From the IMG/VR virus record IMGVR_UViG_648276649_000003: a DNA stretch of 24,165 nt; one strand, written 5' to 3'. Source of the stretch: a virus. Its lineage: Duplodnaviria; Heunggongvirae; Uroviricota; Caudoviricetes. The notes beneath the pieces are model-generated. The model did not search any database, was not told the DNA's origin, and saw only the letters and a list, made by a program, of their open reading frames with translations. The translations under genes were made by a program, and so were the position numbers. Each line of letters opens with the position of its first letter. Position 1 is the first letter of the stretch. This document shows, in pieces, positions 4,126 through 22,797 of this stretch.

Positions 4126-4995
<870 letters not shown>

Positions 4996-5020: not shown

Positions 5021-5070
5021 CAGCACGATCTTGCATACGACGTGCTACGGTTTCATTTATCTCCGACCGG
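5021..5070 (+). repeat. Hairpin-repeat copy C: AGCACGATCTTGCATACGACGTGCTACGGTTTC
   Basis: Lies between the convergent stops of the GIY-YIG gene (4995) and pin (5053); palindromic stem AGCACG/CGTGCT with conserved loop TCTTGCATA; T-rich after the stem, so a possible bidirectional terminator. Confidence 0.55.
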
Positions 5071-5607: not shown

Positions 5608-5633
5608 GGTAGATCTCCCTGACAAAAGCAGGA

Positions 5634-7154: not shown

Positions 7155-7786
7155 CCAATCGCGAAAACTCTAAAGCCACCGTAGCCAGCACATGTAATCT
7201 GAGTTCTTGTTACCGTCGTATAGTATGATCGGCCCACCGCTAAGCTATATGCGGCTGTAGAACTCAAATCAACTGCCCCAGTTGATACATCACTAAATAA
7301 CGGAATCATGCACTCATTTGGGAATGCAATAGGGAAATTCGCAGTTACTGGTGTCACATAATCAGTTGTAGCAGCACCAAACCACTGCAATATGATCACC
7401 CGTTCTTTCCCGGCGACCATTGCCGGGATAGTCATATAGCCTGTAGAGCCGGTCACACACACCGCTGCGCCTAATTTTGCTCCCTCTCCCAAACCAAGGT
7501 TTTCGAGAGCCGTTTTCACCGTGCCATCCGATTTGATATCGCCAAACGGATTCTTGCGGCTTAACAGCAGCGCACGAAGCGCTGTAAGTAGCTGGTCATG
7601 CCGCCCCTTCTCCAGGCTGGCACCGGATGCCTCCACAACACTGCAAAGTTCCTCCTGCAACATGTCAAAGTAGTCATCATCCAGATCGGTGGCAGGTGTG
7701 CCGGTCTGGGGGTTACCACGGGTAAAACCGTTCTTACCCGCGCCGAACTTATCCTTCTGCGCGGTTTTCGTATCTATACGATGCAT
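7148..7786 (-). CDS. Side tail-fibre protein (constant N-terminus plus currently expressed variable C-terminus)
   Basis: N-terminus [29 protein letters not shown] is typical of Stf-type fibres; the crossover site falls at about codon 96-102 (NLGLGEG). Confidence 0.75.
7478..7503. repeat. Right inversion crossover site (inside the tail-fibre gene)
   Basis: Reverse complement reads TCGAAAACC-TT-GGTTTGGGAGAGG, matching the left site at about 21 of 23 positions. Confidence 0.7.
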
Positions 7787-7789
7787 GGA

Positions 7790-8374
7790 TTACTCCGGAT
7801 ATTTAAAAATTACGTAGGTATGCGACGGGCAGAGTTTGTTAAGCACACACTCGACAACGGTGTCGCCCCAGATACGCAGTGCGGAATCACAGGGATCGCC
7901 ACATGTCATCCAGGTGGTGTTGGTGTCGGCTGGCATGTTGACCTGCCAGTAATACCGCCATTCCGGCGCATTCACCGCGTCAGTACAGGCCGATGAGCAG
8001 GTGAACGTGCTTTTGTCGTATCGCGTGATGGTGGCGTCTGGTCTGCCCAGGGCAGCAAGCTGTGCAAGGTAAAAATCCTCATTGATGCCGCCCGCCAGGT
8101 TAACCTTCGCATCCAGTCGTTGCTGACGCTGGCGAAGGGTCTGTGTCCCTGCGGGAATACATTCATCCGGCAGGCCGCACAGACGCTCCCAGCGATTTAT
8201 CAGTTCGGTGGTGGTGCGCGGATCCAGCTCCCGCATCAGGGCATCCGCACGCTGATGAACGCGGGTTAATGACTGTGCCGCACCGGCAATCGCCGGATCG
8301 CTGGCTGACCACGCCGGACCGGGCGGCAGCAGTGCCGACAACAGACGGATGTAATCATCGTTTGTCACGTCCAT
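7790..8374 (-). CDS. Phage tail protein, Mu gp48 / e14 YmfQ-like (DUF2313-type)
   Basis: 194 aa, directly upstream of the tail-fibre gene in the conserved Mu-like order; sequence and length resemble e14 YmfQ as I recall it. Confidence 0.65.
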
Positions 8375-9423
8375 GAAATCGTCCCCAGAACCGCCAGTTC
8401 ATTTTTTGCAATGGAGATATTGTCCGCCGGAGCAAGCAACTGATGGCTGTATTCCCCGTTCGCACCGGAAATCGCTTCACTGATACGCGATACCTTCAGC
8501 TCTCCCTGCGGATAACCATCACGCAGCAGGAATGAACGCAACTCTGCGGTAATGGCAGCCCGTATTTCCGGTGTGTCCGGCGTCACGCGGATATGAAAAT
8601 CCACCGTATGCGCCACCGGCCTGAACACATACAAATCAGAGCCTGCCACCGGGGCCAGTGGCTCAATGTGTTGTCTTGCCGCCGTTTCCGTTGATTCTTC
8701 CGGAATGGGATTAATCAGGTCACTGCTGGCAATCATCACACCGACAGTTCCCGTTCCCATCCAGTGACGGTATGTCCATGCGCGGGTAATGCCGGGCACT
8801 TCTTTAGCCCAGACGACATAGTCCCCGTCAGCCCCGCCCTGCGGCGTCCAGTAATACCGCTCAATGACGCGGGCGCGCCACGTTTCCAGATCTTCAGTAT
8901 CGAATCCGCCAGTCAGGGTATCTGCCACACCGGAAGACGGCAGACCATTCACCGGCGTGACCAGGATTAATGCCGTACCGTCGTCAGCGTTACCGACCGC
9001 GCCTGCAGTTGAGCAGGCGATCGGCACGCGCAGGACACCACCGGAGCTGGTTGCATCAGAAGTTGCCGTGTACTGAACCAGGTCATCGCGCTGAATAACA
9101 CTCCCGGCGGTCACCTTCAGGCCATCGCTGACACCTTCCCAGCGCATATACCCGCTGGCAGACGTGGCCCCCTTGCGCGGACACCGTTTCATCGCAGCAT
9201 GTCGCGCCAGCCAGGACTCATCGCACAGGTCAGGCAGCATGTTCATTGCCAGATAATCGATGTAACCGTAAACCGTATGCAGCGCCGCCGCATACACCTT
9301 TGCCCGCACGTCTTCATCCATGCGCCGGAGCGTGTCGCTGACGTCCAGCCTAGCGAATAAATCGTTACGGAGCATACTGATATTTTCTGCCAGCGTCGGG
9401 CGTTGAAATTCACTGTCCGCCAT
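8365..9423 (-). CDS. Baseplate J-like protein (Mu gp47 family)
   Basis: 352 aa; position and conserved baseplate-J-like sequence in the Mu-type baseplate block. Confidence 0.75.
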
Positions 9424-9838
9424 GCGTTATCGCACTCCACAGATCATCAAAAGAAATCATTACCGGTCCGTCACGACGCCAGAGGGTGATACTGTTACCC
9501 AGCTCATTAATCCCGGTGCGGCGGATATCCAGATCAATACGGGACACTACGCCGTCATCAATCATCCATTGCAGGCATTCGCGGATATATCCCCTTACCG
9601 TCTGCACCAGCTGATTGGTCAGTTTGCTGCGCTGAAGCAGCCACAGTCGGGAGCCGTAACGGTCATTCTGTACCGCAGGCCAGGTATCCCCCCACCATCC
9701 CATCGGGACGTCGGCATTGTCATCAGGTTCAGCCCGCCGCCAGGTGAACAGGGAAATCACCACGGCACGGGTCAGCGGATCCAGCGGTGCGCTGGCGCAG
9801 GTGCGTTTACCGTTCACCGTCAGCCACAGTTCCATCAT
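9410..9838 (-). CDS. Baseplate protein, Mu gp46-like
   Basis: 142 aa; synteny between baseplate V and baseplate J homologues; overlapping starts and stops. Confidence 0.6.
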   Translation of the reverse strand: MMELWLTVNGKRTCASAPLDPLTRAVVISLFTWRRAEPDDNADVPMGWWGDTWPAVQNDRYGSRLWLLQRSKLTNQLVQTVRGYIRECLQWMIDDGVVSRIDLDIRRTGINELGNSITLWRRDGPVMISFDDLWSAITHGGQ

Positions 9839-10383
9839 GCCTCCATCGCTTTATCAGGTTTGTCGGTGTTACTGCCCTGACCGTTCTCTCTGTGACGATG
9901 CCCGTTATAGGCAAGCCGCATCGCTGACATGGTGGTGCCGGTGGAGTCGCACAGGTCTTTCACCTGTCCGGTCACTTCCAGGTCCATTTCAAAACGAGCC
10001 TTAGGCGCATTGCGAAACGTGATCGTTTTACCTGCACCGTCCACCACGATCCCCTCCCGGGTCAGCGTCACGGACTGCCCCTGATCGTCATAGACAGCCA
10101 CCTCCCCCGTATGCAGCCCTTTCAGGCGGTAGCGCCGGTCCGACACCGTAACAACCACCGCATGAGAACGGTCGCCATCCGGAAACAACACCACCGCTTC
10201 CGCACCGCTGTTTGCCCTTGCGGTAAAACCGTAGGGTTCAAGATGTTCAACCCCGGCTTTGGGTTCACCGGCAATCAGGGACACATCCACGGTCTGACAT
10301 TTCGTGGCGGCACTGATGCTTTTCACCACTGCCCGCCCAATCAGGCCGAGAAGTTGTCGCTGCATGGCTTCAATCGTCCTCAT
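9835..10383 (-). CDS. Baseplate assembly protein V / spike (Mu gp45-like)
   Basis: 182 aa; gpV-like spike sequence; synteny. Confidence 0.65.
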   Translation of the reverse strand: MRTIEAMQRQLLGLIGRAVVKSISAATKCQTVDVSLIAGEPKAGVEHLEPYGFTARANSGAEAVVLFPDGDRSHAVVVTVSDRRYRLKGLHTGEVAVYDDQGQSVTLTREGIVVDGAGKTITFRNAPKARFEMDLEVTGQVKDLCDSTGTTMSAMRLAYNGHRHRENGQGSNTDKPDKAMEA

Positions 10384-11462
10384 CAGAACGGGTCCTCCTG
10401 TACTCTGGCTTTTTTCTTTTTCCGCGCGCCGGGGTCTTCAGGTTCAGGCAGATAAGCATCAGGCGGGCCGACACGGATTTCCGTCAGGGTACCGTTCTGG
10501 TCCTGAGTAAACGTGACTTCCGAAACAAGCAGTTCGGTATTGTCAAAACCACAGACCGGATCAAAGACAATCACCCGCTGGTTGGGTTGCCACAGCGTAC
10601 CGTTACCCTGTCGCCAGCCCTGCACCACATAGGTGGTTTCATCCGTCCGCGCCGCCCGTTGCCGGGCTTCAAAGTCAGCACGCGCAATACAGCCTGCCCC
10701 CGTAGCCTGCCCTGTCTGCCTGATATACATCGGACGGTAACGGGCAATAAATGCGTCCTCTGTGCGGGCCCGCAGCGCGGTGGTGGTGGCCTCACCGAAA
10801 TCATCGTCGTTTCCGGCACGCTGCCCCGCCACCTGGTAAACAGAAAACCGCTCCCGGATACTCTTCTCCGTATCGCAGGAAAGGATGTTTTCCCCAAGTA
10901 CCAGCGCGGTATGTGCCCGCGTTGAGCCAATACCGCCAATCACCAGCCTGCCGTGCGGATCGTCGTAAGCCAGTGCCTGCTGCTGACCGAGTATTTTGTT
11001 GATTACCTCAATCACCGTTTCACCGTGATCAGGCTGGACATCAGGAATAACACCCGACGGCGCACCGCTGTTCACCACCTCAATGCCGAAAGGCGCAGCA
11101 AGCGCCTGCGCAATCTGTACCAGCGATCGTCCGTTAAACTGTGTCGGTTCGGCTGCACAGTCAATCAGGTCAGCGGTCAGACTGCGTCCGGCAATACCGG
11201 TGCTGACCGAACGGGCATCGTAACGAACGGGAGTCGCCTCCACCCAGCCGGTGATCACCAGCTCATCACCAATCAGCACTTCCACTTTTGAACCGTTTTT
11301 AATGCGCGGCTGAAGCGTGGTGATACCCTCATCTCCCGGCCACTGGCGGGTGATCTCCACACTGAAATCCCGCGCCAGCCGTTCAATACCGGCACCGATG
11401 CGCACCGAAGTCCAGCCATTCCACTCCCGGCCATTTACCCGTAGCGTGACGTTATCGTTCAT
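10383..11462 (-). CDS. Baseplate hub / tail protein (Mu gp44, P2 gpD-like)
   Basis: 359 aa at the expected position upstream of gp45; translationally coupled. Confidence 0.55.
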   Translation of the reverse strand: MNDNVTLRVNGREWNGWTSVRIGAGIERLARDFSVEITRQWPGDEGITTLQPRIKNGSKVEVLIGDELVITGWVEATPVRYDARSVSTGIAGRSLTADLIDCAAEPTQFNGRSLVQIAQALAAPFGIEVVNSGAPSGVIPDVQPDHGETVIEVINKILGQQQALAYDDPHGRLVIGGIGSTRAHTALVLGENILSCDTEKSIRERFSVYQVAGQRAGNDDDFGEATTTALRARTEDAFIARYRPMYIRQTGQATGAGCIARADFEARQRAARTDETTYVVQGWRQGNGTLWQPNQRVIVFDPVCGFDNTELLVSEVTFTQDQNGTLTEIRVGPPDAYLPEPEDPGARKKKKARVQEDPF

Positions 11463-12127
11463 TGCACTGGCACCTTCAGAGGGATCACCGGCACAAAGCC
11501 GGGATGCGTAATGGCATTACGCCGGATAATGTCCGCGTCACGCGTCGCGTTATCAAACCATGTCGCCGCCAGCACCAGCGCGGGTAAAACCTCATCCGGT
11601 GTGCGCTGAATGATCCGTGCAGACTGTTCAAGGCGCGTGTTGATATCCGCATTCAGATCTGCTTTCACCCGGCGCAGCGCCAGAAACAGCGCATCACTGG
11701 TTGTACGGGACAACTCCTTATCAATTGCCGTATTCAGTGTGTCGCGAATGTCAGTCAGTTCTTCCCACGTCGGCAGATCAACCATGTTTTTCATCGCCGG
11801 TGCATTGTTCAGTGCCGGATGCGTGACGGAAGGCCAGCCGGTGCTCTGTGCAGCTGTTGTTGCCTGCCCCACTGCGGCATTCTGCATCACCGCGGAAGTT
11901 GTTGGCGCAGGCAATCGGGTGACGGCATACGCCGCTTCGCTGATTGCGGTCGTACGAAGGGTGCTGGCAACCACGTTACGCTGCTGCGTCGCCGTAGCGG
12001 TGGTTTTACTGTCCGTTTTCCAGACGCCGCGCGGTTGCAGATCACTGCCGAGGCTGACACCGGAAAGCGTTTTGATCATGGTGACCAGGTCGCTGGCGTT
12101 ACCATAAAGGCGTTTCCGGAACGGCAA
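11459..12127 (-). pseudogene. C-terminal fragment of a tail protein (Mu gp43 DNA-circulation-like), N-terminus deleted
   Basis: 222-aa ORF at the position of the gene upstream of the hub, far shorter than full-length homologues; abuts an unrelated sheath N-terminal fragment in another frame. Confidence 0.45.
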
Positions 12128-12395
12128 TCACATACAGCTCACCAAACGGGTCGGTCTGGCGATAAGCCTCGACCATACGCGCCAGCTGACTTCCCGCACC
12201 ACAAATCTGGCGTGCATAGTCTGCCGACGGCATCAGCACCAGACTGTTGGCAACAATCTCTGCACCGTTATTGGCATGACCAATCAGCAGCGATGCTCCG
12301 CTGTCCTGTGCAGTATTCGCAGCCTGGTTATCCATTTCCGCATAAAACAGCGGAACCAGCGTATTCGACGGAATGGTGTTAAAGCTTATCGTCAT
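12099..12395 (-). pseudogene. N-terminal fragment of a contractile tail sheath protein (truncated after about 98 codons)
   Basis: MTISFNTIPSNTLVPLFYAEMDN... is a canonical sheath N-terminus; the ORF stops at 12099 where the out-of-frame tail-protein fragment begins, so a deletion has removed the rest of sheath, tube and tape-measure genes. Confidence 0.55.
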
Positions 12396-12557
12396 CGGTG
12401 TTCACCTTTTTATTCACGCGCCGGATATCACCCGCTGCTTCACGGCGCAGCCAGTAGTTGTTCTCATCAACATTTCGCCCTTCGGCGGGCAAAAGGTCGC
12501 CGCGGGCAGGGTCAGGCACTGACCGCCCTTTAACAGGTTTCACAAACATGATGATCC

Positions 12558-12978
12558 TCAGGAAGGAAGGGGTATTTCGGTGTGATGTTCGATATCGCCG
12601 TCAGGCCCGTTACCGGGATCGAGATAATCAACATCAATCGCCAGCGTTCGCAGTTCATCCAGACTGTTCAGGTCATCCTGCTGGCGGGTATCGTCTTCGG
12701 TCAGCTCGCTGATGACCGAAAAATCGAACTGATAAATCAGCTCATGACGATTCAGATCCAGCAGCGTGCCGCCGTCATAGGTAATCGGGTTACCGCACGC
12801 TTCCGGGTGCCGACGTTGGTTTCGGCAGACGACGTAACTGCTCAACTATTGCTGCGCACGCCGCGCTCTGGAATTTTCGCCCCGCCTCGCTTATCAGGCT
12901 CTTACCAGCAAACGCTCCTTTGTTGGGGTGTCGCCAGTACGTGTTCACGCTGGGCGGAAAAGGCAGGATCAGCTTCAT
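12558..12978 (-). pseudogene. rusA-like Holliday-junction resolvase remnant (frameshifted or truncated)
   Basis: 62-aa ORF starts MKLILPFPPSVNTYWRH (RusA N-terminal signature) then ends prematurely; the downstream sequence continues in another frame (12558-12845). Confidence 0.45.
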
Positions 12979-13301: not shown

Positions 13302-13951
13302 GCCGCCATCTCCCTGACCAGTTTTTCCGCCTGCTGGCGAACCTGCGCCAGAAACGCCTCACCACATGCCTCAAGTTCATCGCGCCCGATGTAGCTGATT
13401 GCCGGTCCCTTCCATGTCTTGTCAAAAACAGCAATAGCACCAGCGAAAAAAGCTCCTGTCGGTACCTGCTTCTCGTCTTTCGGGATAAACCAGACAGGCA
13501 GTTCAAAACCAATACGCCCGCGAATAAAAGCAATATGATCTGCATCTTCCGGCCACCACACTTCGCTGGTGGCAGCTTTGATCAGGAAAACATAGCGCCC
13601 GCCCTTATCACGCATGGCACTGGCATGTTTCATGATGTAACGCATGCCGGTGATGTATTGCCCCTCATGCTGACTGGCGCGGCTGTATGGGGGATTACCA
13701 AAGGCAGCACCTTTAAGCTCCGCAAGACGTTCTGACCAGTCATGCGCCAGCGCGTTGTCTTCCGCCGTGTAATACGCGGCACATTTGGCGTTATCACCGT
13801 CAGTGAACAGATCCAGAACAAACGGGCCAAACAGGGTGTTAATTCCCCAGAAAATGTTGTCCGGCGTGCGCCACTGATCGCCCACTTCCTTCAGTTCATG
13901 GGCTGGTTTGTTCCGCAGTTCCACCAGCGTCTGGCAATATTTATTACTCAT
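13298..13951 (-). CDS. Phage-type N6-adenine DNA methyltransferase (Dam-like, orphan)
   Basis: NPPY-type catalytic motif (FGNPPYS). Start placed at the MSNKYCQ methionine (13951), which overlaps the upstream stop by one base (TAATG); an in-frame upstream ATG at 13984 is an alternative. Confidence 0.7.
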   Translation of the reverse strand: MSNKYCQTLVELRNKPAHELKEVGDQWRTPDNIFWGINTLFGPFVLDLFTDGDNAKCAAYYTAEDNALAHDWSERLAELKGAAFGNPPYSRASQHEGQYITGMRYIMKHASAMRDKGGRYVFLIKAATSEVWWPEDADHIAFIRGRIGFELPVWFIPKDEKQVPTGAFFAGAIAVFDKTWKGPAISYIGRDELEACGEAFLAQVRQQAEKLVREMAA

Positions 13952-14445
13952 TAAGCCCCCACGTAATTCCCTGACAGATACCACTCTTCACCCGATGCAG
14001 CGCGCTTGCTGCTTTTCCGTAAGCACCGCTCACGACGCGCCAGAAAATTGTTTCGTTCTGGCTGGGAGTGGCTTTCACGGAATGCCGCCATCCACACGGT
14101 TGCAGCACGACGGTATAAGCCCCTGGACTCCAGTTCTTCCGCCTGGCGGGTCAGGCACAAAATCACACGGGGATCGTTAGTGCCGACATAGAAATTGCGC
14201 ACAGGTCTGGTTTCACGAACTGGTTGTGGTTCCGGTTCCTGCGCTCTCTCAGTCAGGCGCGGGAAATGTCTGCGTGTATCTCCTTCACAACGGTGAGCCA
14301 CACGCCCACTCTGACGTAACTTGCTTGCTGACTGCAGAACGCGCTGCCGTGAGTAACCGGCAAAAGCATCCGCAATATCTCCGGAAGTACAGCCCGGATG
14401 GGCTTCAATGAATTTCTGAACGTCATTCAAAAGACTCATGCTCAC
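13951..14445 (-). CDS. Putative PerC-family-like regulator with an N-terminal extension
   Basis: C-terminal AEELESRGLYRRAATVWMAAF...RRERCL resembles the PerC/Pch signature as I recall it (AE.LE..GLYRRAA..W...RR..CL); identity is tentative. Confidence 0.45.
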   Translation of the reverse strand: MSMSLLNDVQKFIEAHPGCTSGDIADAFAGYSRQRVLQSASKLRQSGRVAHRCEGDTRRHFPRLTERAQEPEPQPVRETRPVRNFYVGTNDPRVILCLTRQAEELESRGLYRRAATVWMAAFRESHSQPERNNFLARRERCLRKSSKRAASGEEWYLSGNYVGA

Positions 14446-15383
14446 CCCCTGAATCCTGCCGGGATCTGGCTGTAGTCCACGTTGTCGTAACTGGCTTTGA
14501 AGTACGGGTCTTCGCGTTTTTCGGTGTACGTGCTGACGGACGGCGATAAGCGCAGGGAAAGCTCATCCCATTTTTCCCGCAGCTTCGACGGGCTGAGCAC
14601 GTTACGGCACCAGAACGGATCGCGACTGACGCGGCTGTACATCTCGCAGATTTGTTTATGAGTACGACCATCCTGCACACACATCAGGCGAATTTCGTTT
14701 GCCCAGGCTGTCCAGTTCGGTTCTTTGGGACGAACCACCTCGCCGTCACATTCGGCGGCCTGCTCGTACAGGGCGATGATTTTTTTCCAGAGCCACTGTG
14801 CGCAGGTCAAATCATCCTGCGTTCCCCACTGGCGCTTTTTAGGGCTGAATACAACCGCATCAGGATGGCGAGTTAAAAACTCCTGTTCAGCCGTCTGCGT
14901 GTCCGGTTGCGAAGCGTCCGGACGAGAAGTTTTTTTATCTGACGGATCATGTTTTGATTTTACTGACGGATCCCCGCCAGATTCTGACGGGTGAAAAACC
15001 GCTTTTTTGCCAGATTTCGACGCATCAAATTTTGACGGGTCAGATTTTGATGCGTCAGATTTTGACGGGTCAGAATCTGACAGTTGAGAAAATGCCGCTG
15101 CCTGAAGCTTCGCAACGTTAAGCTGATAAACATTCGACGCATTGCGGTTACCTTGGCGACGCGCCTTACGCGTTAACCAGCCTTCTGCTTCCAGCCGTGC
15201 GATAGCCGTTCTGACGGTACTCATCCCCGCGCCAATCTGACGGGCAATAGTTTCAATTGATGGCCAGCACACACCTTCGTCATTACTGAAATCAGCCAGG
15301 CGGGCCATAATTGCCACGCTGGATAATTTCATGCCTGACGCTGCGCAACCATCCCATACATAGCCGGTTAATTTAGTGCTCAT
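14442..15383 (-). CDS. Phage replication-initiation protein (N-terminal winged-helix DNA-binding domain, internal repeat linker)
   Basis: 313 aa; N-terminal HTH region; central low-complexity SKSD/ASKSD pentapeptide repeats encoded by 15-bp tandem DNA repeats; position next to the immunity region. Confidence 0.6.
   Translation of the reverse strand: MSTKLTGYVWDGCAASGMKLSSVAIMARLADFSNDEGVCWPSIETIARQIGAGMSTVRTAIARLEAEGWLTRKARRQGNRNASNVYQLNVAKLQAAAFSQLSDSDPSKSDASKSDPSKFDASKSGKKAVFHPSESGGDPSVKSKHDPSDKKTSRPDASQPDTQTAEQEFLTRHPDAVVFSPKKRQWGTQDDLTCAQWLWKKIIALYEQAAECDGEVVRPKEPNWTAWANEIRLMCVQDGRTHKQICEMYSRVSRDPFWCRNVLSPSKLREKWDELSLRLSPSVSTYTEKREDPYFKASYDNVDYSQIPAGFRG
14938..15085. repeat. Iteron-like tandem 15-bp repeats (CAGATTTTGACGGGT-like, at least 6 copies) embedded in the replication gene
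   Basis: Copies at 14978-14992, 15011-15025, 15026-15040, 15041-15055, 15056-15070 and 15071-15085, plus degenerate upstream copies; flanked by A/T runs (14930-14936, 15003-15008). Confidence 0.6.
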
Positions 15384-15392
15384 GACCGACCT

Positions 15393-15731
15393 CTATTTCC
15401 CTGAATTTACGACGAAACTGTTCGAGCGGGCTGAAGCACTCATGCTCATAGCCTTCACGGAGGTAGATAACCCGTTGTGTTTCCGGCTCCCAACGAATGA
15501 CTCTGACGGGCACTCCGTAGTGATCTTTGAACCAGCGGTTAACTTGTCGCAAAGGACTGTCTCCTTCTGCCGGTTAAAATCACCCACAGCCCACTCTGCA
15601 AAGCTGTGGGTTACAATTACCCTGCCACCTGGTACATTTACTGCATAGCAATACTCCACCTTCGCTTTTCCACCCGGTACAGGAAGCGCAATCAGTTGCG
15701 AGCGACGGTAGTGTGTTGTTAAACTATTCAT
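15393..15731 (-). CDS. Hypothetical phage protein (e14 YmfM-like by size and position)
   Basis: 112-aa ORF in the early-right operon between the immunity and replication genes; no recognisable motif. Confidence 0.45.
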
Positions 15732-16279
15732 GCGTTAGTTTCTCCACAGTCACGACACGCCACGGCGCCCGGAGCTGCACACTCGCGGGCGTCATTACTT
15801 TCTGAAATGCAAAAAATTTTGTAGACCAGTGCTGCATGCTCCTGCAGCTTCGAAATTGAGAGGTACAGCTCGTCGTTAATTGCTGTCTTCTCATGCGGTT
15901 CCACTACACCGTCTTCAATTGCTGAACGAATCTGTTTTGAATAACTGCCGATCTGTTCAATGACCTCCAGCAGGCGTTGGTTGATATCGGCGTTGTCCAC
16001 ATCCTCGACATCAGGAAGAGACACAAAGACGCCATTTGCAGACTGCGCCACAGCGTCAGCAATGAAGTGAGTTCCACCAGCACGTTGCAAAATCATTGCC
16101 CATCCCAGCGGGAAAATCTGATCGCCATCGGCACGAAGGCGGTTAAATAATGCGTTCTCTGTTACATCCAGCCAGTCAGCAGCTTCAGCGTAACCCCCCG
16201 GCAACGCTGCGATAGTTTTTCTGACAGCTTTCACGTACCACTCAGGCTGTTTTTCTACTTTCCAGTGATGCTTACCCAC
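15728..16279 (-). CDS. Hypothetical phage early protein (e14 YmfL-like by size and position)
   Basis: 183 aa, directly downstream of cro in the same operon; overlapping starts and stops. Confidence 0.5.
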
Positions 16280-16532
16280 GGTTCACCTCCTGTTCCTGTG
16301 GTTTAAACCCATTCTGGTTTTGGCTAGATTGAAAACGTGCCGGATAAAGAATCTGCATTTCGCTGACTTCACCCTTAAAAAAATTGGCTAAACGTTCTGC
16401 AAGCTCGATAGATGGAATCTGCTCCAGCCTCTCAATACGACTCAACGTCGCTGGATTGACTTGAACACCCGCAGCAACATGCTGCAAAGTGAAACCATGC
16501 GCCTTACGCACATTTCGTAATGGTGATTGCAT
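16272..16532 (-). CDS. Cro-like HTH (XRE-family) regulator
   Basis: 86 aa with HTH (GFTLQHVAAGVQVNPATLSRIE); divergent from cI; GGAGG Shine-Dalgarno 5 nt upstream of the ATG. Confidence 0.7.
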   Translation of the reverse strand: MQSPLRNVRKAHGFTLQHVAAGVQVNPATLSRIERLEQIPSIELAERLANFFKGEVSEMQILYPARFQSSQNQNGFKPQEQEVNRG

Positions 16533-16629
16533 ATAACCTCCAAATATTGCGCGTTATGCATGTTATTTCACGCAATTATTTTGCGCAAGTTGATTTGCTT
16601 ATCACGCAATAAAGAAATGTAATAAACGC
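16533..16629. promoter_or_regulatory. cro-cI divergent promoter/operator region with repeated TTGC...GCAA-type sites
   Basis: 97-bp intergenic region containing ATTGCGCG (16546-16553), TCACGCAA (16568-16575), palindromic TTGCGCAA (16581-16588) and a 15-bp site TTGCTTATCACGCAA (16595-16609). Confidence 0.6.
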
Positions 16630-17322
16630 ATGAACATAGGAAACCGAGTCAGACAACTTCGCCAAGCGAAGAACATGAAAATCGCCGATCTCGCTGAAGC
16701 AATAGGAGTAGATGCGGCGAACATCTCGCGCTTAGAAACGGGTAAGCAAAAACAATTTACCGAACAAACACTGAGTAATATTGCCAAGAGCTTAGGTGTT
16801 GATATTGCTGATCTCTTTACCTCTGCCCACAAAAGTAATACTGTATATAAAAACAGTAATAATGAGGATGTTGCGCAGGTGAAGGATGTGTTCCGTATTG
16901 AAATGCTGGATATCAGTGCCAGTGCGGGAAATGGCCTTATCCAGGGCGGTGATGTCATTGATGTGATTCATGCCATCGAATACAGAACTGATAATGCTGT
17001 ATCAATGTTCGGCGGACGACCAGCCAATCACATCAAAGTTATCAACGTTCGTGGGGACAGTATGTGTCCAACCATTGAGCCAGGAGATCTCATCTTCGTT
17101 GATGTCAGCATCAATCAGTTTGATGGTGATGGTATATATGTCTTTGGTTTTGATGACAAAATATACGTTAAAAGACTTCAAATGATTCCTGACAAACTGC
17201 TGGTGATTTCTGATAACCAGATTTACCGTGAATGGGGAATTACTAGCGAAAACGAACACCGATTCATGGTCTTTGGAAAGGTCTTAATCAGTCAGTCGCA
17301 AACCCTTAAGAGACATAATTAA
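16630..17322 (+). CDS. CI-like prophage repressor (HTH_XRE plus S24 LexA-like peptidase domain)
   Basis: 230 aa; N-terminal HTH (MKIADLAEAIGVDAANISRLETGKQ); C-terminal S24 signature (GDSMCPTIEPGDLIFVD ... YVKRL). Confidence 0.85.
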   Translation: MNIGNRVRQLRQAKNMKIADLAEAIGVDAANISRLETGKQKQFTEQTLSNIAKSLGVDIADLFTSAHKSNTVYKNSNNEDVAQVKDVFRIEMLDISASAGNGLIQGGDVIDVIHAIEYRTDNAVSMFGGRPANHIKVINVRGDSMCPTIEPGDLIFVDVSINQFDGDGIYVFGFDDKIYVKRLQMIPDKLLVISDNQIYREWGITSENEHRFMVFGKVLISQSQTLKRHN

Positions 17323-17340
17323 CCTCAATATCCCATCCAT

Positions 17341-17363
17341 CGGCCACCGAAAGGTGGCTTTTT
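17341..17363 (+). terminator. Rho-independent terminator after cI
   Basis: GGCCACC-GAAA-GGTGGC hairpin followed by TTTTT, 20 bp after the cI stop. Confidence 0.7.
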
Positions 17364-17376
17364 AATACCTATAAAT

Positions 17377-17413
17377 TTGCATACCTCGCAAATATTACTT
17401 GCATATCTCGCAA
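17377..17413. promoter_or_regulatory. Two direct 15-bp operator-like sites (TTGCATACCTCGCAA and TTGCATATCTCGCAA), an OL-like position
   Basis: 14 of 15 identical, centre-to-centre spacing 22 bp; same TTGC-N7-GCAA pattern as the site at 16595-16609 on the other side of cI. Confidence 0.55.
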
Positions 17414-17661
17414 TTTAATTTTATCTTTTGTTCCAGACCAACTACCGGATTACAACAAAATCTGGTTGCAACACGGTGCATGTGTCGTAAGCAGTCAGTA
17501 AATGTCAAAAACGAACAGGCAGGACGCCCACGAAGTAGCCGCCTGGGGCATATGAAGTCCAGGATGATTCGTTAGCAACAAAAAAGCGCCCTACAGGACG
17601 CTTAGCTCTTTAACAATCTGGTCCCCATCAACAAGTAACTGATAACTTGAGGAGATGTGAA

Positions 17662-17868
17662 ATGCACAAAACAGAACCCAAAATCGTCGCGCCTGGCTAC
17701 ACAGATGAGGAAATTTATGAGTGGATGACAAAGAAGCTGGCAGCTATAAACCAGCTTCGTGAAGTGCTGTCTTATCGACAGGAAACAATAGACTCTTTAA
17801 AAAAACTGGATCAGGAAATCACGGTTTTATCACAGGATGTTACTTTAGATATTGTGCAGACAAATTAG
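17662..17868 (+). CDS. Hypothetical small acidic protein (68 aa), first gene of the presumed early-left operon
   Basis: ORF track begins at a TTG (17647); the in-frame ATG at 17662 is preceded by GAGGAG; 3' end overlaps the convergent 144-aa gene. Confidence 0.45.
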   Translation: MHKTEPKIVAPGYTDEEIYEWMTKKLAAINQLREVLSYRQETIDSLKKLDQEITVLSQDVTLDIVQTN

Positions 17869-18274
17869 GATCCCATTCATTTTCGTCAAAATCATCAAAG
17901 TGATGAATTTGTGATCTCCAGTCTCGATAATCTAAAAATTTCTGGGCGGTTACGCTTATTTTATCAAGTGTGAGTTCATCCTGAATTGAAAGAAGAAGTT
18001 CATCAAATTTCATCTCATTAATCTGTTTTGGCATCCAGTGATGCTTCATCAGAATAAGGTGAACCAGAGCCTTTTTCCCATTCAACTGATTATAGGGAGT
18101 GCCGAATTTCTTCCGGTGCTCATGTAAGACAAGGTCCAAAAGAGTAAGTAATGTTGCCCTTGATTCAACTTTGCTTATTTCGACTGATGACACTACCCCA
18201 CTGATTTCAATGCCCCGATACTTTCCAACATTTTCACAGTGGGATTTGTACAGCGTATAGATATTACCGGACAT
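17840..18274 (-). CDS. Hypothetical protein (144 aa), AT-rich, antisense to the early-left operon
   Basis: Clean ORF with no large competing frame; unusual composition and orientation suggest acquired cargo; no recognisable motif. Confidence 0.5.
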   Translation of the reverse strand: MSGNIYTLYKSHCENVGKYRGIEISGVVSSVEISKVESRATLLTLLDLVLHEHRKKFGTPYNQLNGKKALVHLILMKHHWMPKQINEMKFDELLLSIQDELTLDKISVTAQKFLDYRDWRSQIHHFDDFDENEWDPNLSAQYLK

Positions 18275-18289
18275 TTCTTTTCCTTTTGC

Positions 18290-18720
18290 GTTGTTGGGGA
18301 TAACCAGATTAACCGAATCCTTGTTGTTGGGGAATAACTAGGTCCACCTCGCCTGATGTGGCTAAAAGCAGGCACATAACAGCTAAGTATTTTCAACCAG
18401 AGAGAATCCTTAGCGTTGTGGTGAATGCGGCTCAGCGCACGCGGGTTAAGGTTGAGGCTGACAGTCGACCTTCTGTGGATACCCACCCGCCTGGTGTGCA
18501 ACCTTCGCCAGGCACCGGGAGGCACCCGGCACCACAACTTTATGCTGTGTGTAGTCTTGGCGGTACCAGCTTGTACCCTTGCTTCCGGCTGGTACCGTCC
18601 TTTTTACAAAACAGAGAAGAGCATCACCGGACGACGGGCTCATAACCCAATCCATCCGGGCGGCAGTCACCGCAGGTGTTCTTCTCTGTTTTGTGGAGAA
18701 ACTAACCGACCTTGCAGGGT
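18290..18720. other. GC-rich structured non-coding island (candidate regulatory RNA or leader)
   Basis: About 430 bp with only short mutually overlapping ORFs; many perfect hairpins, including a 10-bp stem and a 13-14-bp long-range stem; direct repeat GTTGTTGGGGA(A)TAA at 18283-18296 and 18314-18328. Confidence 0.4.
18561..18605 (+). terminator. Intrinsic-terminator-like hairpin (CGGTACCAGC / GCTGGTACCG, 17-nt loop) followed by TTTTT
   Basis: Perfect 10-bp stem at 18561-18570 and 18588-18597, then T5 at 18601-18605, on the strand of the early-left genes. Confidence 0.55.
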
Positions 18721-18742
18721 CGATATGATGAGGAGCAGCAAA

Positions 18743-19105
18743 ATGGCTAGCGAACGCAGTACTGATGTGCAGGCATTTATCGGGGAGCTGGACGGCGGCG
18801 TATTTGAAACCAAAATCGGCGCAGTTCTCAGTGAAGTCGCTTCCGGTGTGATGAACACGAAAACCAAAGGTAAGGTCTCGCTCAACCTGGAAATCGAACC
18901 GTTTGATGAGAACCGAGTGAAAATCAAACACAAACTCTCATATGTTCGCCCGACTAACCGCGGGAAAATTTCCGAAGAAGACACCACCGAAACGCCGATG
19001 TATGTCAATCGCGGTGGTCGCCTGACTATTCTGCAGGAAGACCAGGGACAGTTACTGACTCTTGCCGGTGAACCTGACGGAAAACTCCGCGCAGCAGGTC
19101 GTTAA
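18743..19105 (+). CDS. Hypothetical phage protein (CPS-53 YfdP-like by size and position)
   Basis: ATG at 18743 preceded by GAGGAG; 120 aa; the ORF-track start at 18425 is a 5' extension into the structured region and is rejected. Confidence 0.55.
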   Translation: MASERSTDVQAFIGELDGGVFETKIGAVLSEVASGVMNTKTKGKVSLNLEIEPFDENRVKIKHKLSYVRPTNRGKISEEDTTETPMYVNRGGRLTILQEDQGQLLTLAGEPDGKLRAAGR

Positions 19106-19170
19106 TATCGTTTTTAATTAACTGATTATTTATCTCATCACTGAATATCTTTATATAGTGAGGACTTATT

Positions 19171-19995
19171 ATGTCTCAGAACTTAGACGCAACCGCAATT
19201 AATCAAATCCATGCCCTTATTTCTGCTCAGGGTGTTAATGAAATTATCAGTAAGATTGGTGCCGATGCTGTGGCATTGCCTGAGAATTTCCGCATTCATG
19301 ATCTGGAAAAATTTAATTTAAATCGCTTCCGTTTCCGTGGTGCGCTTTCCACTGCCAGCATCGATGACTTTACCCGTTATTCTAAAGATCTTGCAGATGA
19401 AGGCACCCGCTGCTTTATCGATGCTGATAATATGCGTGCCGTCAGTGTGCTTAACCTGGGTACTATTGATGAACCAGGTCACGCAGATAACACCGCCACA
19501 CTCAAACTGAAAAAGACAGCACCGTTCTCTGCTCTGTTGTCTGTTAACGGCGAGCGTAACTCCCAGAAGTCACTGGCAGAATGGATTGAAGACTGGGCCG
19601 ACTATCTTGTGGGCTTTGATGCTAATGGTGACGCTATTCAGGCAACAAAAACGGCTGCGGCTGTCCGTAAAATCACGATTGAAGCAAACCAGACCGCTGA
19701 TTTTGAAGATAATGACTTCAGCGGCAAACGCTCCCTGATGGAGTCTGTCGAAGCGAAGACCAAAGACATTATGCCAGTGGCATTTGAATTTAAATGCGTT
19801 CCGTTTGAAGGTCTGAAAGAACGTCCGTTTAAATTACGCCTCAGTATTATCACTGGCGATCGTCCTGTACTGGTTCTACGCATTATTCAGCTGGAGGCGG
19901 TGCAGGAAGAAATGGCTAACGAATTTCGTGATCTGCTTGTTGAGAAATTCAAGGACAGCAAAGTAGAAACCTTTATTGGTACTTTCACCGCCTGA
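19171..19995 (+). CDS. yfdQ: DUF2303-type protein, YfdQ-like
   Basis: 274 aa; N-terminus [21 protein letters not shown]...; size and order match the CPS-53 yfdPQRST block as I recall it. Confidence 0.6.
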
Positions 19996-20122
19996 TTTCA
20001 TTACTGCAAATGCCCCTGCGGGGGCATTTATGGAAACGTAATTTACTCAATAATCGCCGGATGGTGAGGGATTCTTTTTACCAGAATTCAGCGCGGTGCA
20101 GCGCATATACGTGGAGAACAAA

Positions 20123-20659
20123 ATGTCATTTATTAAAACTTTTTCCGGGAAGCATTTTTATTATGACAGGATAAATAAAGACGACATCGATATTAACGAT
20201 ATCGCGGTTTCCCTTTCAAATATCTGTCGCTTTGCCGGTCATCTTTCGCACTTCTACAGCGTCGCCCAACATGCGGTTCTTTGCAGCCAGCTGGTGCCGC
20301 AGGAATTTGCTTTTGAAGCGTTAATGCATGATGCAACAGAAGCGTATTGCCAGGACATTCCCGCACCACTGAAACGCCTTCTTCCTGACTATAAACAAAT
20401 GGAAGAAAAAATAGACGCCGTAATCCGTGAGAAATACGGGTTACCCCCAGTTATGAGTACGCCCGTGAAATATGCCGATCTCATCATGCTGGCAACCGAA
20501 CGCCGCGATCTCGGGCTTGATGATGGCTCTTTCTGGCCTGTACTGGAAGGTATCCCGGCAACAGAGATGTTCAACGTGATTCCACTGGCTCCGGGCCATG
20601 CCTACGGGATGTTTATGGAACGCTTTAACGAGTTATCGGAGTTACGCAAATGCGCATGA
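20123..20659 (+). CDS. yfdR: HD-domain phosphohydrolase, YfdR-like (YfbR-type 5'-deoxynucleotidase fold)
   Basis: HD signature (H...H...HDATEAY); start chosen at MSFIKTF (178 aa) inside ORF 20096..20659. Confidence 0.65.
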   Translation: MSFIKTFSGKHFYYDRINKDDIDINDIAVSLSNICRFAGHLSHFYSVAQHAVLCSQLVPQEFAFEALMHDATEAYCQDIPAPLKRLLPDYKQMEEKIDAVIREKYGLPPVMSTPVKYADLIMLATERRDLGLDDGSFWPVLEGIPATEMFNVIPLAPGHAYGMFMERFNELSELRKCA

Positions 20660-21012
20660 ATGTTTTCGAAATGGAAGGGTTTCTTCGTGGGAGATGTGTA
20701 CCGCGAGATCTGAAAGTAAATGAAACAGATGCTGAATACCTAGTGCGTAAATTCGATGCGCTTGAAGCTAAATGTGCAGCACAGGAAAACAAAGTAATAC
20801 CAGTGTCAACTGAACTGCCACCAGCAAATGAAAGTGTTTTGTTATTCGATGCTAACGGAGAAGGCTGGCTAATTGGCTGGCGTTCTCTCTGGTACACCTG
20901 GGGACAAAAAGAAACCGGAGAATGGCAGTGGACATTTCAGGTCGGGGACCTTGAAAACGTCAATATCACTCACTGGGCAGTAATGCCAAAAGCACCGGAG
21001 GCTGGAGCATAA
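20650..21012 (+). CDS. yfdS: Hypothetical protein, YfdS-like (120 aa)
   Basis: Size and synteny; overlaps neighbouring genes, consistent with translational coupling. Confidence 0.5.
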   Translation: MRMNVFEMEGFLRGRCVPRDLKVNETDAEYLVRKFDALEAKCAAQENKVIPVSTELPPANESVLLFDANGEGWLIGWRSLWYTWGQKETGEWQWTFQVGDLENVNITHWAVMPKAPEAGA

Positions 21013-21317
21013 TGACCACTTTTACCGACAAAGAACTGATTAAAGAAATTAAAGAGCGTATCAGCAGCCTTGACGTGCGAGACGATATTGAGCGCCGTGC
21101 TTATGAAATCGCACTCCTATCTCTGGAAGTAGAACCAGATGAACGCGAAGCTTATGAATTATTCATGGAAAAGCGTTTCGGTGACTTAGTAGATCGTCGG
21201 AGAGCAAAAAACGGCGATAACGAATACATGGCATGGGATATGACTCTCGGTTGGATCGTCTGGCAGCAACGAGCTGGTATCCATTTTTCAACAATGTCAC
21301 AGCAAGAGGTGAAATAA
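21012..21317 (+). CDS. yfdT: Hypothetical protein, YfdT-like (101 aa)
   Basis: Size and synteny; its stop overlaps the xis start (TAATG). Confidence 0.5.
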   Translation: MTTFTDKELIKEIKERISSLDVRDDIERRAYEIALLSLEVEPDEREAYELFMEKRFGDLVDRRRAKNGDNEYMAWDMTLGWIVWQQRAGIHFSTMSQQEVK

Positions 21318-21667
21318 TGGAGCCATACAGCCTCACACTCGATGAGGCCTGTCATTTTCTCAAGATATCCAGACCGACTGCCATTAACTGGATACGCACA
21401 GGGCGTCTTCAGGCAACACGCAAAGATCCCACTAAGAATAAATCTCCTTACCTCACAACACGACAAGCCTGCATTGCGGCTCTTCAGTCTCCGCTGCATA
21501 CTGTCCAGGTGAGCGCGGGTGATGGCATAACAGAGGAAAGAAAATGTCACTCTTCCGCAGAGGTGAAATATGGTACGCCAGTTTCACATTGCCGAACGGT
21601 AAAAGATTTAAACAGTCTCTTGGAACAAAGGACAAAAGGCAGGCGACAGAACTCCATGACAAGCTAA
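21317..21667 (+). CDS. xis: Excisionase (Xis, AlpA/e14 XisE-like HTH); 3' end uncertain
   Basis: [36 protein letters not shown] is an excisionase-type winged helix; the frame stays open to 21667 and so overlaps the int start by about 120 nt. Confidence 0.6.
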
Positions 21668-22707
21668 AGGCTGAAGCATGGCGGGTCAGCAAACTTGGTG
21701 AAATACCTGATATAACGTTCGAGGAAGCGTGTGTCAGGTGGCTTGAAGAGAAAGCACATAAAAAATCACTGGACGATGACAAAAGCCGGATCGGATTCTG
21801 GCTTCAACATTTCGCAGGAATGCAACTAAGAGACATTACTGAATCAAAAATTTATTCAGCAATGCATAAAATGACGAACCGGCGTCATGAGGAAAACTGG
21901 AAACTCAGGGCAGAAGCATGCAGAAAAAAAGGGAAACCTGTTCCAGAATACACGCCAAAACCAGCGTCCGTTGCAACGAAGGCTACGCATCTTTCATTTA
22001 TAAAGGCCCTACTAAGAGCCGCAGAGCGTGAATGGAAAATGCTGGATAAGGCACCAATTATTAAAGTGCCCCAACCAAAGAATAAACGGATCCGCTGGCT
22101 GGAGCCCCATGAAGCACAAAGGCTGATTGATGAATGTCCGGAGCCATTAAAGTCTGTTGTTGAATTTGCACTGGCAACAGGCCTAAGACGCTCGAACATC
22201 ATCAACCTTGAATGGCAACAAATAGATATGCAGCGCCGGGTGGCATGGATAAACCCGGAAGAGAGTAAATCAAACCGCGCAATTGGCGTTGCGCTGAATG
22301 ATACTGCATGTCGCGTATTGAAAAAACAAATCGGGAATCATCACCGTTGGGTATTTGTGTACAAGGAAAGCTGTACCAAACCAGACGGAACGAAAGCGCC
22401 AACAGTCAGGAAGATGCGGTATGACGCAAACACAGCCTGGAAAGCGGCGCTGAGACGGGCTGGTATTGATGATTTCAGATTTCACGACTTGAGACACACC
22501 TGGGCAAGTTGGCTGGTTCAAGCCGGAGTCCCGTTGTCAGTGTTACAGGAAATGGGAGGCTGGGAGTCTATCGAAATGGTTCGTCGATATGCTCACCTTG
22601 CACCTAATCACCTTACCGAACACGCACGGCAAATAGACTCGATCCTGAACCCATCGGTCCCAAATTTGTCCCAGTCAAAAAATAAGGAAGGTACTAATGA
22701 TGTGTAA
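21544..22707 (+). CDS. int: Tyrosine-recombinase phage integrase (lambda/e14 IntE-like)
   Basis: 387 aa; N-terminus [21 protein letters not shown]; catalytic-domain motifs (...[11 protein letters not shown]...VRRYAHL); stop is 15 bp from the tRNA 3' end. Confidence 0.9.
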
Positions 22708-22721
22708 CTTATTGATTTAAA

Positions 22722-22797
22722 TGGTGCCGATAATAGGAGTCGAACCTACGACCTTCGCATTACGAATGCGCTGCTCTACCAACTGAGCTATATCGGC
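22722..22797 (-). tRNA. thrW: tRNA-Thr (anticodon CGU)
   Basis: Reverse complement reads GCCGATATAGCTCAGTTGGTAGAGCAGCGCATTCGTAATGCGAAGGTCGTAGGTTCGACTCCTATTATCGGCACCA: cloverleaf with anticodon loop TTCGTAA and encoded CCA. Confidence 0.9.

Follow-up and report, generated by a model that had tools for sequence, protein, structure and literature searches.

Positions 18743–21317 of the window (the whole 24,165-nt stretch of DNA analysed here) very probably hold the widespread accessory yfdP–yfdT block of a lambdoid early-left operon in its native, intact context, within a prophage of the SfIV/SfV type inserted at thrW; the block would be expressed upon induction of this prophage, and its products would shut down the initiation of host replication.

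The five-gene cassette and its K-12 counterpart

The original prediction placed five co-directional genes in this region, and matched them in order and size to the yfdP-yfdQ-yfdR-yfdS-yfdT block of the K-12 prophage CPS-53. Both points are borne out: five intact open reading frames of 120, 274, 178, 120 and 101 amino acids are found on the plus strand, and global alignment to the proteins of E. coli K-12 MG1655, which are equal in length, gives 95.8–98.9% identity, as follows:

18743–19105, plus strand: yfdP, 120 aa, 98.3% identical to K-12 YfdP
19171–19995, plus strand: yfdQ, 274 aa, DUF2303 (PF10065), 98.9% identical to K-12 YfdQ
20008–20029, plus strand: GC-rich hairpin in the yfdQ–yfdR spacer, read from the sequence, without a clear U-tract
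20123–20659, plus strand: yfdR, 178 aa, HD-domain phosphohydrolase, 97.8% identical to K-12 YfdR
20650–21012, plus strand: yfdS, 120 aa, C-terminal DUF551, 95.8% identical to K-12 YfdS
21012–21317, plus strand: yfdT, 101 aa, 96.0% identical to K-12 YfdT

At the DNA level, blastn returns a single collinear segment of 2650 bp, at 96.5% identity, between positions 18724–21373 and K-12 positions 2473585–2476234. As judged by sequence, the five genes are true orthologues of CPS-53 yfdP–yfdT, beyond mere likeness. The YfdR length is counted from the ATG used in K-12, and the frame is open back to a GTG at 20096. All five genes had also been proposed to be translationally coupled, which holds for the distal part: yfdR and yfdS overlap by 10 nt, and the yfdS stop and yfdT start overlap as TAATG, as do the yfdT stop and the start of the downstream xis. 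In contrast, 65 nt separate yfdP from yfdQ, and 127 nt separate yfdQ from yfdR.

YfdQ matches PF10065 with 309.2 bits over residues 7–272 (gathering threshold 26.6), and its homologue is found in the PDB as 'YfdQ Protein' (9o7m, 36 chains; E 8e-58 with the family profile). YfdS is a borderline match to DUF551 (PF04448; 22.2 bits for a gathering threshold of 22.0, residues 50–117). PDB sequence searches with YfdP (single sequence and profile), YfdS and YfdT returned nothing significant, PADLOC gave no defence-family match for any of the five proteins, and a literature search on DUF2303 returned nothing functional.

The cassette is already known, and its identification is correct but ordinary. 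RefSeq names yfdP, yfdQ, yfdR (5'-deoxynucleotidase) and yfdT in the same DNA, 3300 of the 5426 complete E. coli genomes contain cassette DNA (1942 of them at full length), and the phages SfIV and SfV have the same layout. With named genes, present in most E. coli genomes and laid out as in SfV and SfIV, the finding as first stated matters little.

Immunity region, leader RNA and integration genes

The region is organized in the following order: cro on the minus strand, cI on the plus strand with its terminator, the operator-like repeats, a small ORF, a moron on the opposite strand, the leader, yfdP, yfdQ, the spacer hairpin, yfdR, yfdS, yfdT and xis, then int and the attachment core. The features outside the five genes are:

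16272–16532, minus strand: cro-like repressor gene, 86 aa (ORF; PHROG transcription-regulator matches)
16630–17322, plus strand: cI-type repressor, 230 aa, with Peptidase_S24 (Pfam, 6e-19) and HTH_3 domains
17377–17391 and 17399–17413, plus strand: two operator-like 15-bp repeats, 22 bp apart (repeat search)
17399–17404 (−35, TTGCAT) and 17422–17427 (−10, TATCTT), plus strand: weak candidate early-left promoter, 7 of 12 positions
18385–18608, plus strand: STnc100-like structured RNA (Rfam RF02076, E 4e-8, model positions 1–206, full length)
18606–18724, plus strand: second part of the leader, a long hairpin with arms 18606–18630 and 18670–18694 (inverted repeat)
21317–21667, plus strand: excisionase gene xis, 116 aa from the ATG at 21317, HTH_17
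21544–22707, plus strand: tyrosine integrase gene int, 387 aa, PF00589 (2e-48), SfV/SfIV type
22722–22767, unstranded: attachment core, the 3' 46 bp of thrW, where phage-genome identity stops

The immunity region had been taken to be e14-like, a description that applies to its flanks alone (15150–16307 on the ymfL side and 18344–18732 in the leader, at 90–95%). The cassette between them, at 16308–17506, differs from those of SfIV, SfV and e14, and is the sole stretch within 14700–22767 that has no SfIV counterpart. Its cI matches e14 YmfK over 39 aa only (38%, E 3e-5), and its cro gave zero matches to e14 YmfT at E ≤ 10.

A terminator-like site (17342–17359) directly follows cI. The pair of operator-like repeats lies inside the swapped immunity cassette, and matches a site in the cI–cro intergenic region (16595–16609); the operator pattern used for searching was derived from these very sites, so exact matches to it are circular. 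The candidate early-left promoter is positioned by the operator-like repeats alone, because a sigma-70 consensus scan found no site near them or upstream of the cassette. The same type of scan found no promoter-like site on the plus strand inside the cassette.

The STnc100-like RNA, which is also present in SfV and SfIV, scores 43.4 bits against RF02076, below the gathering threshold of 47, with all 206 model positions matched, and is closed by an intrinsic terminator (stem 18559–18599, U-tract 18601–18605). ST64B has a leader RNA of 78% identity, whose terminator stem is kept by compensatory changes, while phiES15 has a different terminator. Positions 18385–18742 fold with a z-score of −5.8, and RNAalifold identified compensatory pairs in the long hairpin, in an alignment of five lineages. 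A small hairpin (18705–18724) is located just 5' of the yfdP ribosome-binding site. The full-length model match, the terminal intrinsic terminator and the location in a prophage are shared with the STnc100/PasD family of prophage sRNAs, described as prophage-associated (bioRxiv 10.64898/2026.05.13.724894); the RNA differs from that family in its score below gathering, and it may act only in cis, as an operon leader. A DicF candidate at 18546–18600 was rejected, as its 19.4 bits (for a threshold of 48; E 0.11) reflect a generic terminator-hairpin resemblance.

Downstream of yfdT, xis matches the excisionase family phrog_2907 (1.3e-50, residues 29–144 of the ORF at 21233–21667). Homology to K-12 stops at 21373, and K-12 ypdJ is a remnant of the first 19 xis codons. 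The integrase had been predicted to be specific for thrW, in agreement with its location: int is set against this tRNA-Thr gene (anticodon CGT, 22722–22797, minus strand, by ARAGORN), which adjoins proA, and the 46-bp core is inside the tRNA gene. The integrase, excisionase and attachment core are those of a thrW-integrating prophage of the SfV/SfIV type.

Possible roles of the cassette

Noguchi & Katayama (2016; PMC4776307) reported that K-12 YfdR binds DnaA, that the contact is made with domain I, at Phe46, in competition with DiaA and DnaB, and that multicopy yfdQ and yfdR, together with either yfdS or yfdT, inhibit initiation at oriC. This inhibition has been demonstrated solely for K-12 genes in multicopy or under overexpression; in an in vitro unwinding assay, purified YfdR on its own was not inhibitory, and deletion of the K-12 genes gave no phenotype (PMC4776307). 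The original prediction is accurate on the binding of YfdR to DnaA and on the overexpression effect, but yfdP is dispensable.

In the arrangement described above, the cassette would be silent in the lysogen. Repressor cleavage would allow its co-transcription with xis and int, starting at a promoter within the immunity cassette, with read-through at the leader terminator limiting its expression. By analogy with the K-12 proteins, host initiation would then be shut down during lytic development, with the phage using an origin of its own for replication. K-12 would carry this arrangement as a decapitated remnant, in keeping with the absence of a deletion phenotype there.

A stronger version of this model can be put forward tentatively, and it may well not hold. 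In the intact arrangement, the DnaA-targeting proteins YfdQ, YfdR, YfdS and YfdT might form a programmed step of induction, produced from the early-left transcript under repressor control, gated by the STnc100-family RNA and its terminator, with a conserved leader of hairpins, and chained stoichiometrically to Xis through the stop/start overlaps. If so, the weak K-12 phenotypes that require overexpression would be an artefact of a copy from which a 3.57-kb deletion has taken the promoter and leader, and the ORFs annotated over the leader (ymfH in e14, gp34 and gp35 in SfIV) would in fact be RNA. The K-12 copy, cut off from the immunity region and the structured leader, is the one used in the sole functional study. 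Because it has lost both, intact SfIV-type prophages, or SfIV and SfV themselves, are a better system for the question of whether a temperate phage deliberately blocks initiation at the host oriC upon induction, and they could also reveal the contributions of YfdP, YfdQ, YfdS and YfdT.

YfdR was further characterized by comparison with other HD-domain proteins. H69, D70 and D119 do not vary across 24 sequences, in which H50 shows a conservation of at least 90%, giving the H...HD...D metal ligands of the HD phosphohydrolase superfamily, and the predicted HD signature is present. The four differences to K-12 YfdR (R16K, D23V, Q92R and E170D) do not include an HD ligand. The nearest solved relative is Agrobacterium Atu1052 (PDB 2gz4; E 3e-14, residues 19–175), with the same ligand residues. 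The proposed assignment to the YfbR 5'-deoxynucleotidase type is too strong a label for this HD hydrolase. E. coli YfbR (PDB 2paq) belongs to the same superfamily and shares the ligands, with its H68-D69 and D137 aligned to H69-D70 and D119 of YfdR. However, BLASTP aligns the two at 29% identity across only 45 residues, and YfdR falls below the cut-offs of both NCBIfam NF003009, the YfbR family (20.5 bits for a cut-off of 122), and Pfam PF12917 (25.2 bits for a cut-off of 25.9, residues 41–104). The nucleotide affinities of K-12 YfdR are also far below YfbR's (PMC4776307).

As an alternative, the cassette may mainly alter nucleotide pools, with YfdR as a dNMP phosphatase in phage development and DnaA binding as a side effect of overexpression. 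The catalytic HD residues are strictly conserved, and two annotations point to a 5'-nucleotidase, namely the RefSeq name and phrog_318, which YfdR matches and which is described as 'deoxyribonucleoside 5' monophosphate phosphatase'. YfdR-like HD hydrolases are found in 333 phage records, including records from distant hosts such as Bacillus and Caulobacter, for which contact with the E. coli DnaA cannot be the common function. Because the homologues span such distant hosts, the conserved role of YfdR may be an enzymatic one in nucleotide metabolism and not the binding of DnaA. The lack of inhibition by purified YfdR alone (PMC4776307) goes in the same direction. On the other hand, DnaA binding requires Phe46 and is subject to competition by DiaA and DnaB (PMC4776307), the phenotype requires YfdQ and either YfdS or YfdT, proteins without nucleotidase features, and both roles can coexist. 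I consider a role mainly in nucleotide pools somewhat unlikely.

It has to be considered as well that the genes are cargo benefiting the lysogen, expressed from the resident prophage for tolerance to oxidative or DNA-damage stress, and not lytic functions. Stress phenotypes are on record for K-12, and PMC10834534 repeats them for the DUF551 protein YfdS, but the K-12 copies that give these phenotypes are without their native upstream region. In the window, the genes lie behind a terminator-bearing leader and are chained to xis, a position expected for induction-specific early genes, and the cassette has no plus-strand promoter-like site of its own. Such a cargo function is improbable.

Comparison with SfIV, SfV, K-12 CPS-53 and other phages

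The closest relatives are the serotype-converting Shigella phages SfIV (NC_022749) and SfV (U82619; orf32–orf28, xis and int), in which the leader, the five genes, xis, int and the attachment core follow in the same order. Identity to SfIV is 99.3% over 17507–22767, from beyond cI through yfdP–yfdT, xis and int to the core, and identity to SfV is 98.8% over 18344–22767. Like these myovirus-tailed lambdoid phages, the window carries Mu-like baseplate genes. It differs from them in its cro–cI cassette (16308–17506), of another specificity type than the 224-aa cI common to SfIV, SfV and e14, and in that its prophage is internally deleted, with the gtr end, where the O-antigen modification genes gtrA-gtrB-gtr(type) would be expected, outside the window. 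The prophage is defective, its baseplate genes abutting a truncated rusA at about 12806. The left part of the window contains an IS66 element, PD-T4-3, the Pin invertase, and tail-fibre and baseplate genes.

CPS-53 (KplE1) of K-12 has the same five genes (b2359–b2363), in the same order and with the same lengths, and the shared DNA includes the ypdJ remnant. Upstream, however, the 5' end of the replication gene, ymfL, cro, cI, the morons and the leader are missing, with ∼19 bp left before yfdP. The K-12 junction reads ...GGTTA followed directly by TGATGAGGAG..., corresponding to a clean deletion of 3573 bp (15151–18723) with 2-bp microhomology. CPS-53 is the derived form, with the immunity region and leader lost by one deletion. 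Downstream, torI is found in place of the window xis, and intS is at the other end of the prophage, at argW.

The joining of the cassette to an e14-like immunity region and a thrW integrase had been seen as modular exchange, the window being a newly assembled combination that brings the CPS-53 host-takeover cassette beside these modules. Identity to K-12 does end at 21373, inside xis, followed in K-12 by torI and integration at argW; the cro–cI cassette is unlike that of SfIV; and e14 has the same leader with no yfdP–yfdT ahead of xisE. However, the layout from the cI-distal region to the core is that published for SfIV and SfV, at ∼99% identity, and some 1170 complete E. coli genomes carry the yfdT-xis-int junction unbroken. 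In addition, neither cI nor cro is of the e14 kind, phage mEp460 already combines this cI/cro type with yfdPQRS, and the left joint in K-12 comes from a deletion, not an exchange. A new combination is very improbable, and the mosaic joints, at 16308 and 17506 (immunity cassette, relative to SfIV) and at 21373 (xis/int, relative to K-12), are routine lambdoid mosaicism.

More distant phages, namely ST64B (sb37–sb35), LLS (gp39–gp37), 118970_sal3 and mEp460, have yfdP, yfdQ and yfdR in this order directly after the repressor region and leader. An unrecognised recombination module formed by YfdP and YfdQ, replacing Red/RecET-type functions, is hardly credible and was dropped: the two genes do sit at the position of the Rec module, including in phages without Rec such as LLS and ST64B, but the trio is also found in phage ArgO145 beside a complete, separate Rec module, for which a recombination role was judged unlikely (PMC12315714), and there is no fold similarity. 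The early-left yfdP–yfdT block, in its native context, differs from these relatives at its distal end: ST64B and 118970_sal3 are missing yfdS and yfdT, while in mEp460 yfdS is present, followed by Ea22-like and other genes.

Identity and organization of the five genes

The original prediction placed a module like yfdP-yfdQ-yfdR-yfdS-yfdT, carried in Escherichia coli K-12 by the cryptic prophage CPS-53 (KplE1), at window 18743–21317, and the ORF list agrees exactly in coordinates and sizes:

18743–19105, +, yfdP, 120 aa, intact ORF
19171–19995, +, yfdQ, 274 aa, intact ORF
20123–20659, +, yfdR, 178 aa from its ATG, frame open back to a GTG at 20096
20650–21012, +, yfdS, 120 aa, intact ORF
21012–21317, +, yfdT, 101 aa, intact ORF
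downstream of the five, from ATG 21317, +, excisionase (xis), 116 aa, phrog_2907

Global alignment of the products, in the same order, to YfdP, YfdQ, YfdR, YfdS and YfdT of K-12 MG1655 gave 98.3, 98.9, 97.8, 95.8 and 96.0% identity, bearing out the proposed match. The DNA (18724–21373) is a single segment, 96.5% identical to K-12, and the RefSeq names are yfdP, ‘YfdQ family protein’, yfdR ‘5'-deoxynucleotidase’, ‘phage protein’ and yfdT. Given this identity, the equal lengths, the collinear DNA and these names, the genes are true yfdP-T orthologues, beyond mere similarity, and chance resemblance is not at issue. The identification is already known, being named in RefSeq, and the cassette is common in E. 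coli: the region is present in 3300 of 5426 complete genomes, and full length in 1942 (megablast).

All five genes had been proposed to be coupled. This holds for yfdR/yfdS, which overlap by 10 nt, and yfdS/yfdT, joined by TAATG, but not for yfdP-yfdQ, separated by 65 nt, or yfdQ-yfdR, where a 127-nt gap holds a GC-rich hairpin (20008–20029). The overlap chain runs past 21317, as the yfdT stop and the next ATG again form TAATG; this ATG is assigned to the excisionase because phrog_2907 covers residues 29–144 of the ORF at 21233–21667.

Protein families and published function

YfdR carries the predicted HD motif: aligning 23 family members with E. coli YfbR shows H69, D70 and D119 as invariant and H50 as at least 90% conserved, and H69-D70 and D119 line up with YfbR H68-D69 and D137. 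Calling it ‘YfbR type’ was too strong, as YfdR misses both family cut-offs (Pfam YfbR-like, 25.2 bits where the gathering score is 25.9, residues 41–104 only; NCBIfam NF003009, 20.5 bits against 122) and BLASTP aligns only 45 residues with YfbR, at 29%. The nearest solved structure is that of the uncharacterised Atu1052 (2gz4, E 3e-14), with YfbR (2paq) at E 0.88. Homologues turn up across very different hosts, in 333 phage records.

YfdQ belongs to the DUF2303 family. PDB entry 9o7m, ‘YfdQ Protein’, comprises 36 chains of one 274-aa sequence and is a homologue by the YfdQ family profile (E 8e-58); a literature search found no publication for it. A search for structural neighbours of the AF2 models of YfdQ (pLDDT 78) and YfdP (pLDDT 70) returned none that were informative, and none of the five proteins matched a PADLOC defence family. 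YfdS contains DUF551, a portable domain that occurs in Ea22 variants as well.

The published work to which the prediction refers does exist: in K-12, inhibition of initiation was reported, and YfdR binds DnaA through Phe46, competing moderately with DiaA and DnaB (Noguchi & Katayama, 2016; PMC4776307). However, the minimal inhibitory set is yfdQ together with yfdR plus one of yfdS or yfdT, yfdP being dispensable, and purified YfdR by itself was not inhibitory in the in vitro assay. Chromosomal deletion of the genes gave no phenotype, and according to the authors YfdR has far lower affinities for nucleotides than YfbR does (PMC4776307).

Leader RNA and expression

The region to the left of yfdP contains the following features:

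16308–17506, immunity cassette: cro, intergenic operators, cI, cI terminator and the next 150 bp
17647–17868, +, 73-aa ORF (phrog_1744), in the position of an early-left first gene
17840–18274, −, ECs1072-family gene (NCBIfam NF033230, 1.7e-46), between cI and the leader
18385–18742, structured leader upstream of yfdP

A 15-bp sequence, TTGCTTATCACGCAA, at 16595 in the cI-cro intergenic region recurs twice just past the cI terminator, 22 bp apart, as TTGCATACCTCGCAA (17377) and TTGCATATCTCGCAA (17399). Since both copies lie within the swapped immunity cassette, where repressor-matched operators are expected, I infer that this region is a candidate left operator and promoter. The best promoter candidate (−35 at 17399–17404, −10 at 17422–17427) matches 7 of 12 consensus positions; a promoter scan found nothing at 17399–17427. 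Between these repeats and yfdP lie, in order, the 73-aa ORF, the opposite-strand ECs1072-family gene and the GC-rich leader of ∼360 nt. The ECs1072-family gene has its own terminators (17758–17733 and 17603–17584), and has the look of a lysogen-expressed moron.

Within the leader, 18385–18608 matches the whole Rfam STnc100 model (RF02076) at 43.4 bits, against a gathering score of 47 (E 4e-8), and the match ends in a stem and U5 intrinsic terminator (18559–18605); a family of prophage sRNAs that takes in STnc100 and PasD has been described (bioRxiv 10.64898/2026.05.13.724894). A long conserved hairpin (18606–18694) follows, then a small one (to 18724) ahead of the yfdP RBS. Folding of the entire leader gives z = −5.8, and an alignment with SfV, e14, ST64B and 118970_sal3 shows compensatory changes in 10 of 103 predicted pairs, which cluster in the long hairpin and the stem of the terminator; such changes appear relative to the Salmonella phages ST64B and 118970_sal3. 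At this position phage phiES15 carries another terminator. Coding annotations lie over this leader (window 18418–19105; loci L003 3355–4267 and L005 5070–5381), namely SfIV gp34 and gp35 and e14 ymfH; gp34 is a 226-aa ORF joining leader and YfdP, and gp35 is a ‘frameshifted hypothetical protein’ in strain KW21. These annotations look like over-calls; what is conserved in the region is RNA structure.

The sequence shows the placement of the cassette in the operon. On the best mechanistic reading it would be an induction-specific early-left cassette, whose YfdR, YfdQ and YfdS-T products interfere with DnaA; the DnaA biochemistry is shown for the K-12 orthologues only, and the physiological role is inferred. 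In ST64B and 118970_sal3, yfdP-Q-R follow the shared leader and the downstream genes differ; this trio is unlikely to be recombination genes (PMC12315714).

Prophage context and comparison with related phages

K-12 is the most informative comparison for the left context. Its homology blocks, window 13685–15150 and 18724–21373, adjoin directly (NC_000913, about 2473585; junction ...GGTTA|TGATGAGGAG..., with a 2-bp TA microhomology), so that CPS-53 has lost 3573 bp in a clean deletion and is the deleted form of this arrangement. The deletion truncates yfdO and takes away the replication gene's 5' end, ymfL, cro and cI, along with two small genes and the leader, thus leaving ∼19 bp of native sequence, RBS included, upstream of K-12 yfdP. 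On the right, K-12 identity stops at 21373, 19 codons into xis, the remnant being ypdJ, followed by torI.

The window's own prophage is also internally deleted. Its other features are:

1–2870, IS66-family element: HTH transposase-like ORF (255–932), IS66 Orf2 TnpB (932–1279), DDE transposase (1299–2870)
5053–5643, −, Pin/Resolvase-family invertase
5634–6751, +, tail-collar gene
6723–7154, −, tail-fibre-assembly gene
7148–12127, −, Mu-like baseplate genes
22722–22797, −, tRNA-Thr(CGT), thrW

A truncated rusA and early genes follow within 700 bp of the baseplate genes (about 12127–12806). In strain KW21 the ∼14 kb upstream of rusA carry regulatory, lysis and terminase genes together with head and head-tail connector genes. 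Identity with that strain begins at 12806 and is 100% to 24165 (the right 11.4 kb); the KW21 prophage has phage structural genes on one side and thrW-proA on the other. In 5053–7154 the two tail genes, oppositely oriented, flank the invertase; this host-range segment is invertible and resembles the one in e14 (88% identity to the pinE region). Next to the invertase, in the tail-fibre region, lies a 274-aa GIY-YIG protein (4171–4995) that matches the PADLOC anti-phage defence family PD-T4-3 (E 2.6e-140).

The Shigella phages SfIV (NC_022749) and SfV (U82619) match at 99.3% (17507–22767) and 98.8% (18344–22767), and both carry the same five ORFs (SfV orf32-orf28), then xis and int. Identity to both ends at 22767, 46 bp into thrW, the expected position of an attachment core, which upholds the predicted thrW-specific integrase. 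In complete E. coli genomes, the leader-yfdP junction is contiguous in 1195 and yfdT-xis-int in 1170. The arrangement is canonical for a published phage group; the proposed joining of the cassette, by modular exchange, with an immunity region of e14 type is not supported: the layout is that of SfIV and SfV and common in E. coli, and K-12 is its deleted form.

The immunity region is e14-like only in its flanks (15150–16307, ymfL side, 95%; 18344–18732, 90%). The window cI matches e14 YmfK at 38% over just 39 residues, with the same alignment statistics for the SfIV and SfV cI, and protein comparison found no match between its cro and YmfT. Across 14700–22767 only 16308–17506 differs from SfIV, and this is a classic swap of the immunity cassette when set against SfIV, SfV and e14. 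The 70 bp just after it (17507–17576) are kept in SfIV (99%), SfV (97%) and e14 (86%) amid differing DNA, and could be a nut-like site or merely a cassette recombination joint. Phage mEp460 has the window's cro/cI type, then yfdP-Q-R-S. In e14 the shared leader runs straight into xisE-intE without yfdP-T, which sets the cassette limits at ∼18732/18743 and 21317.
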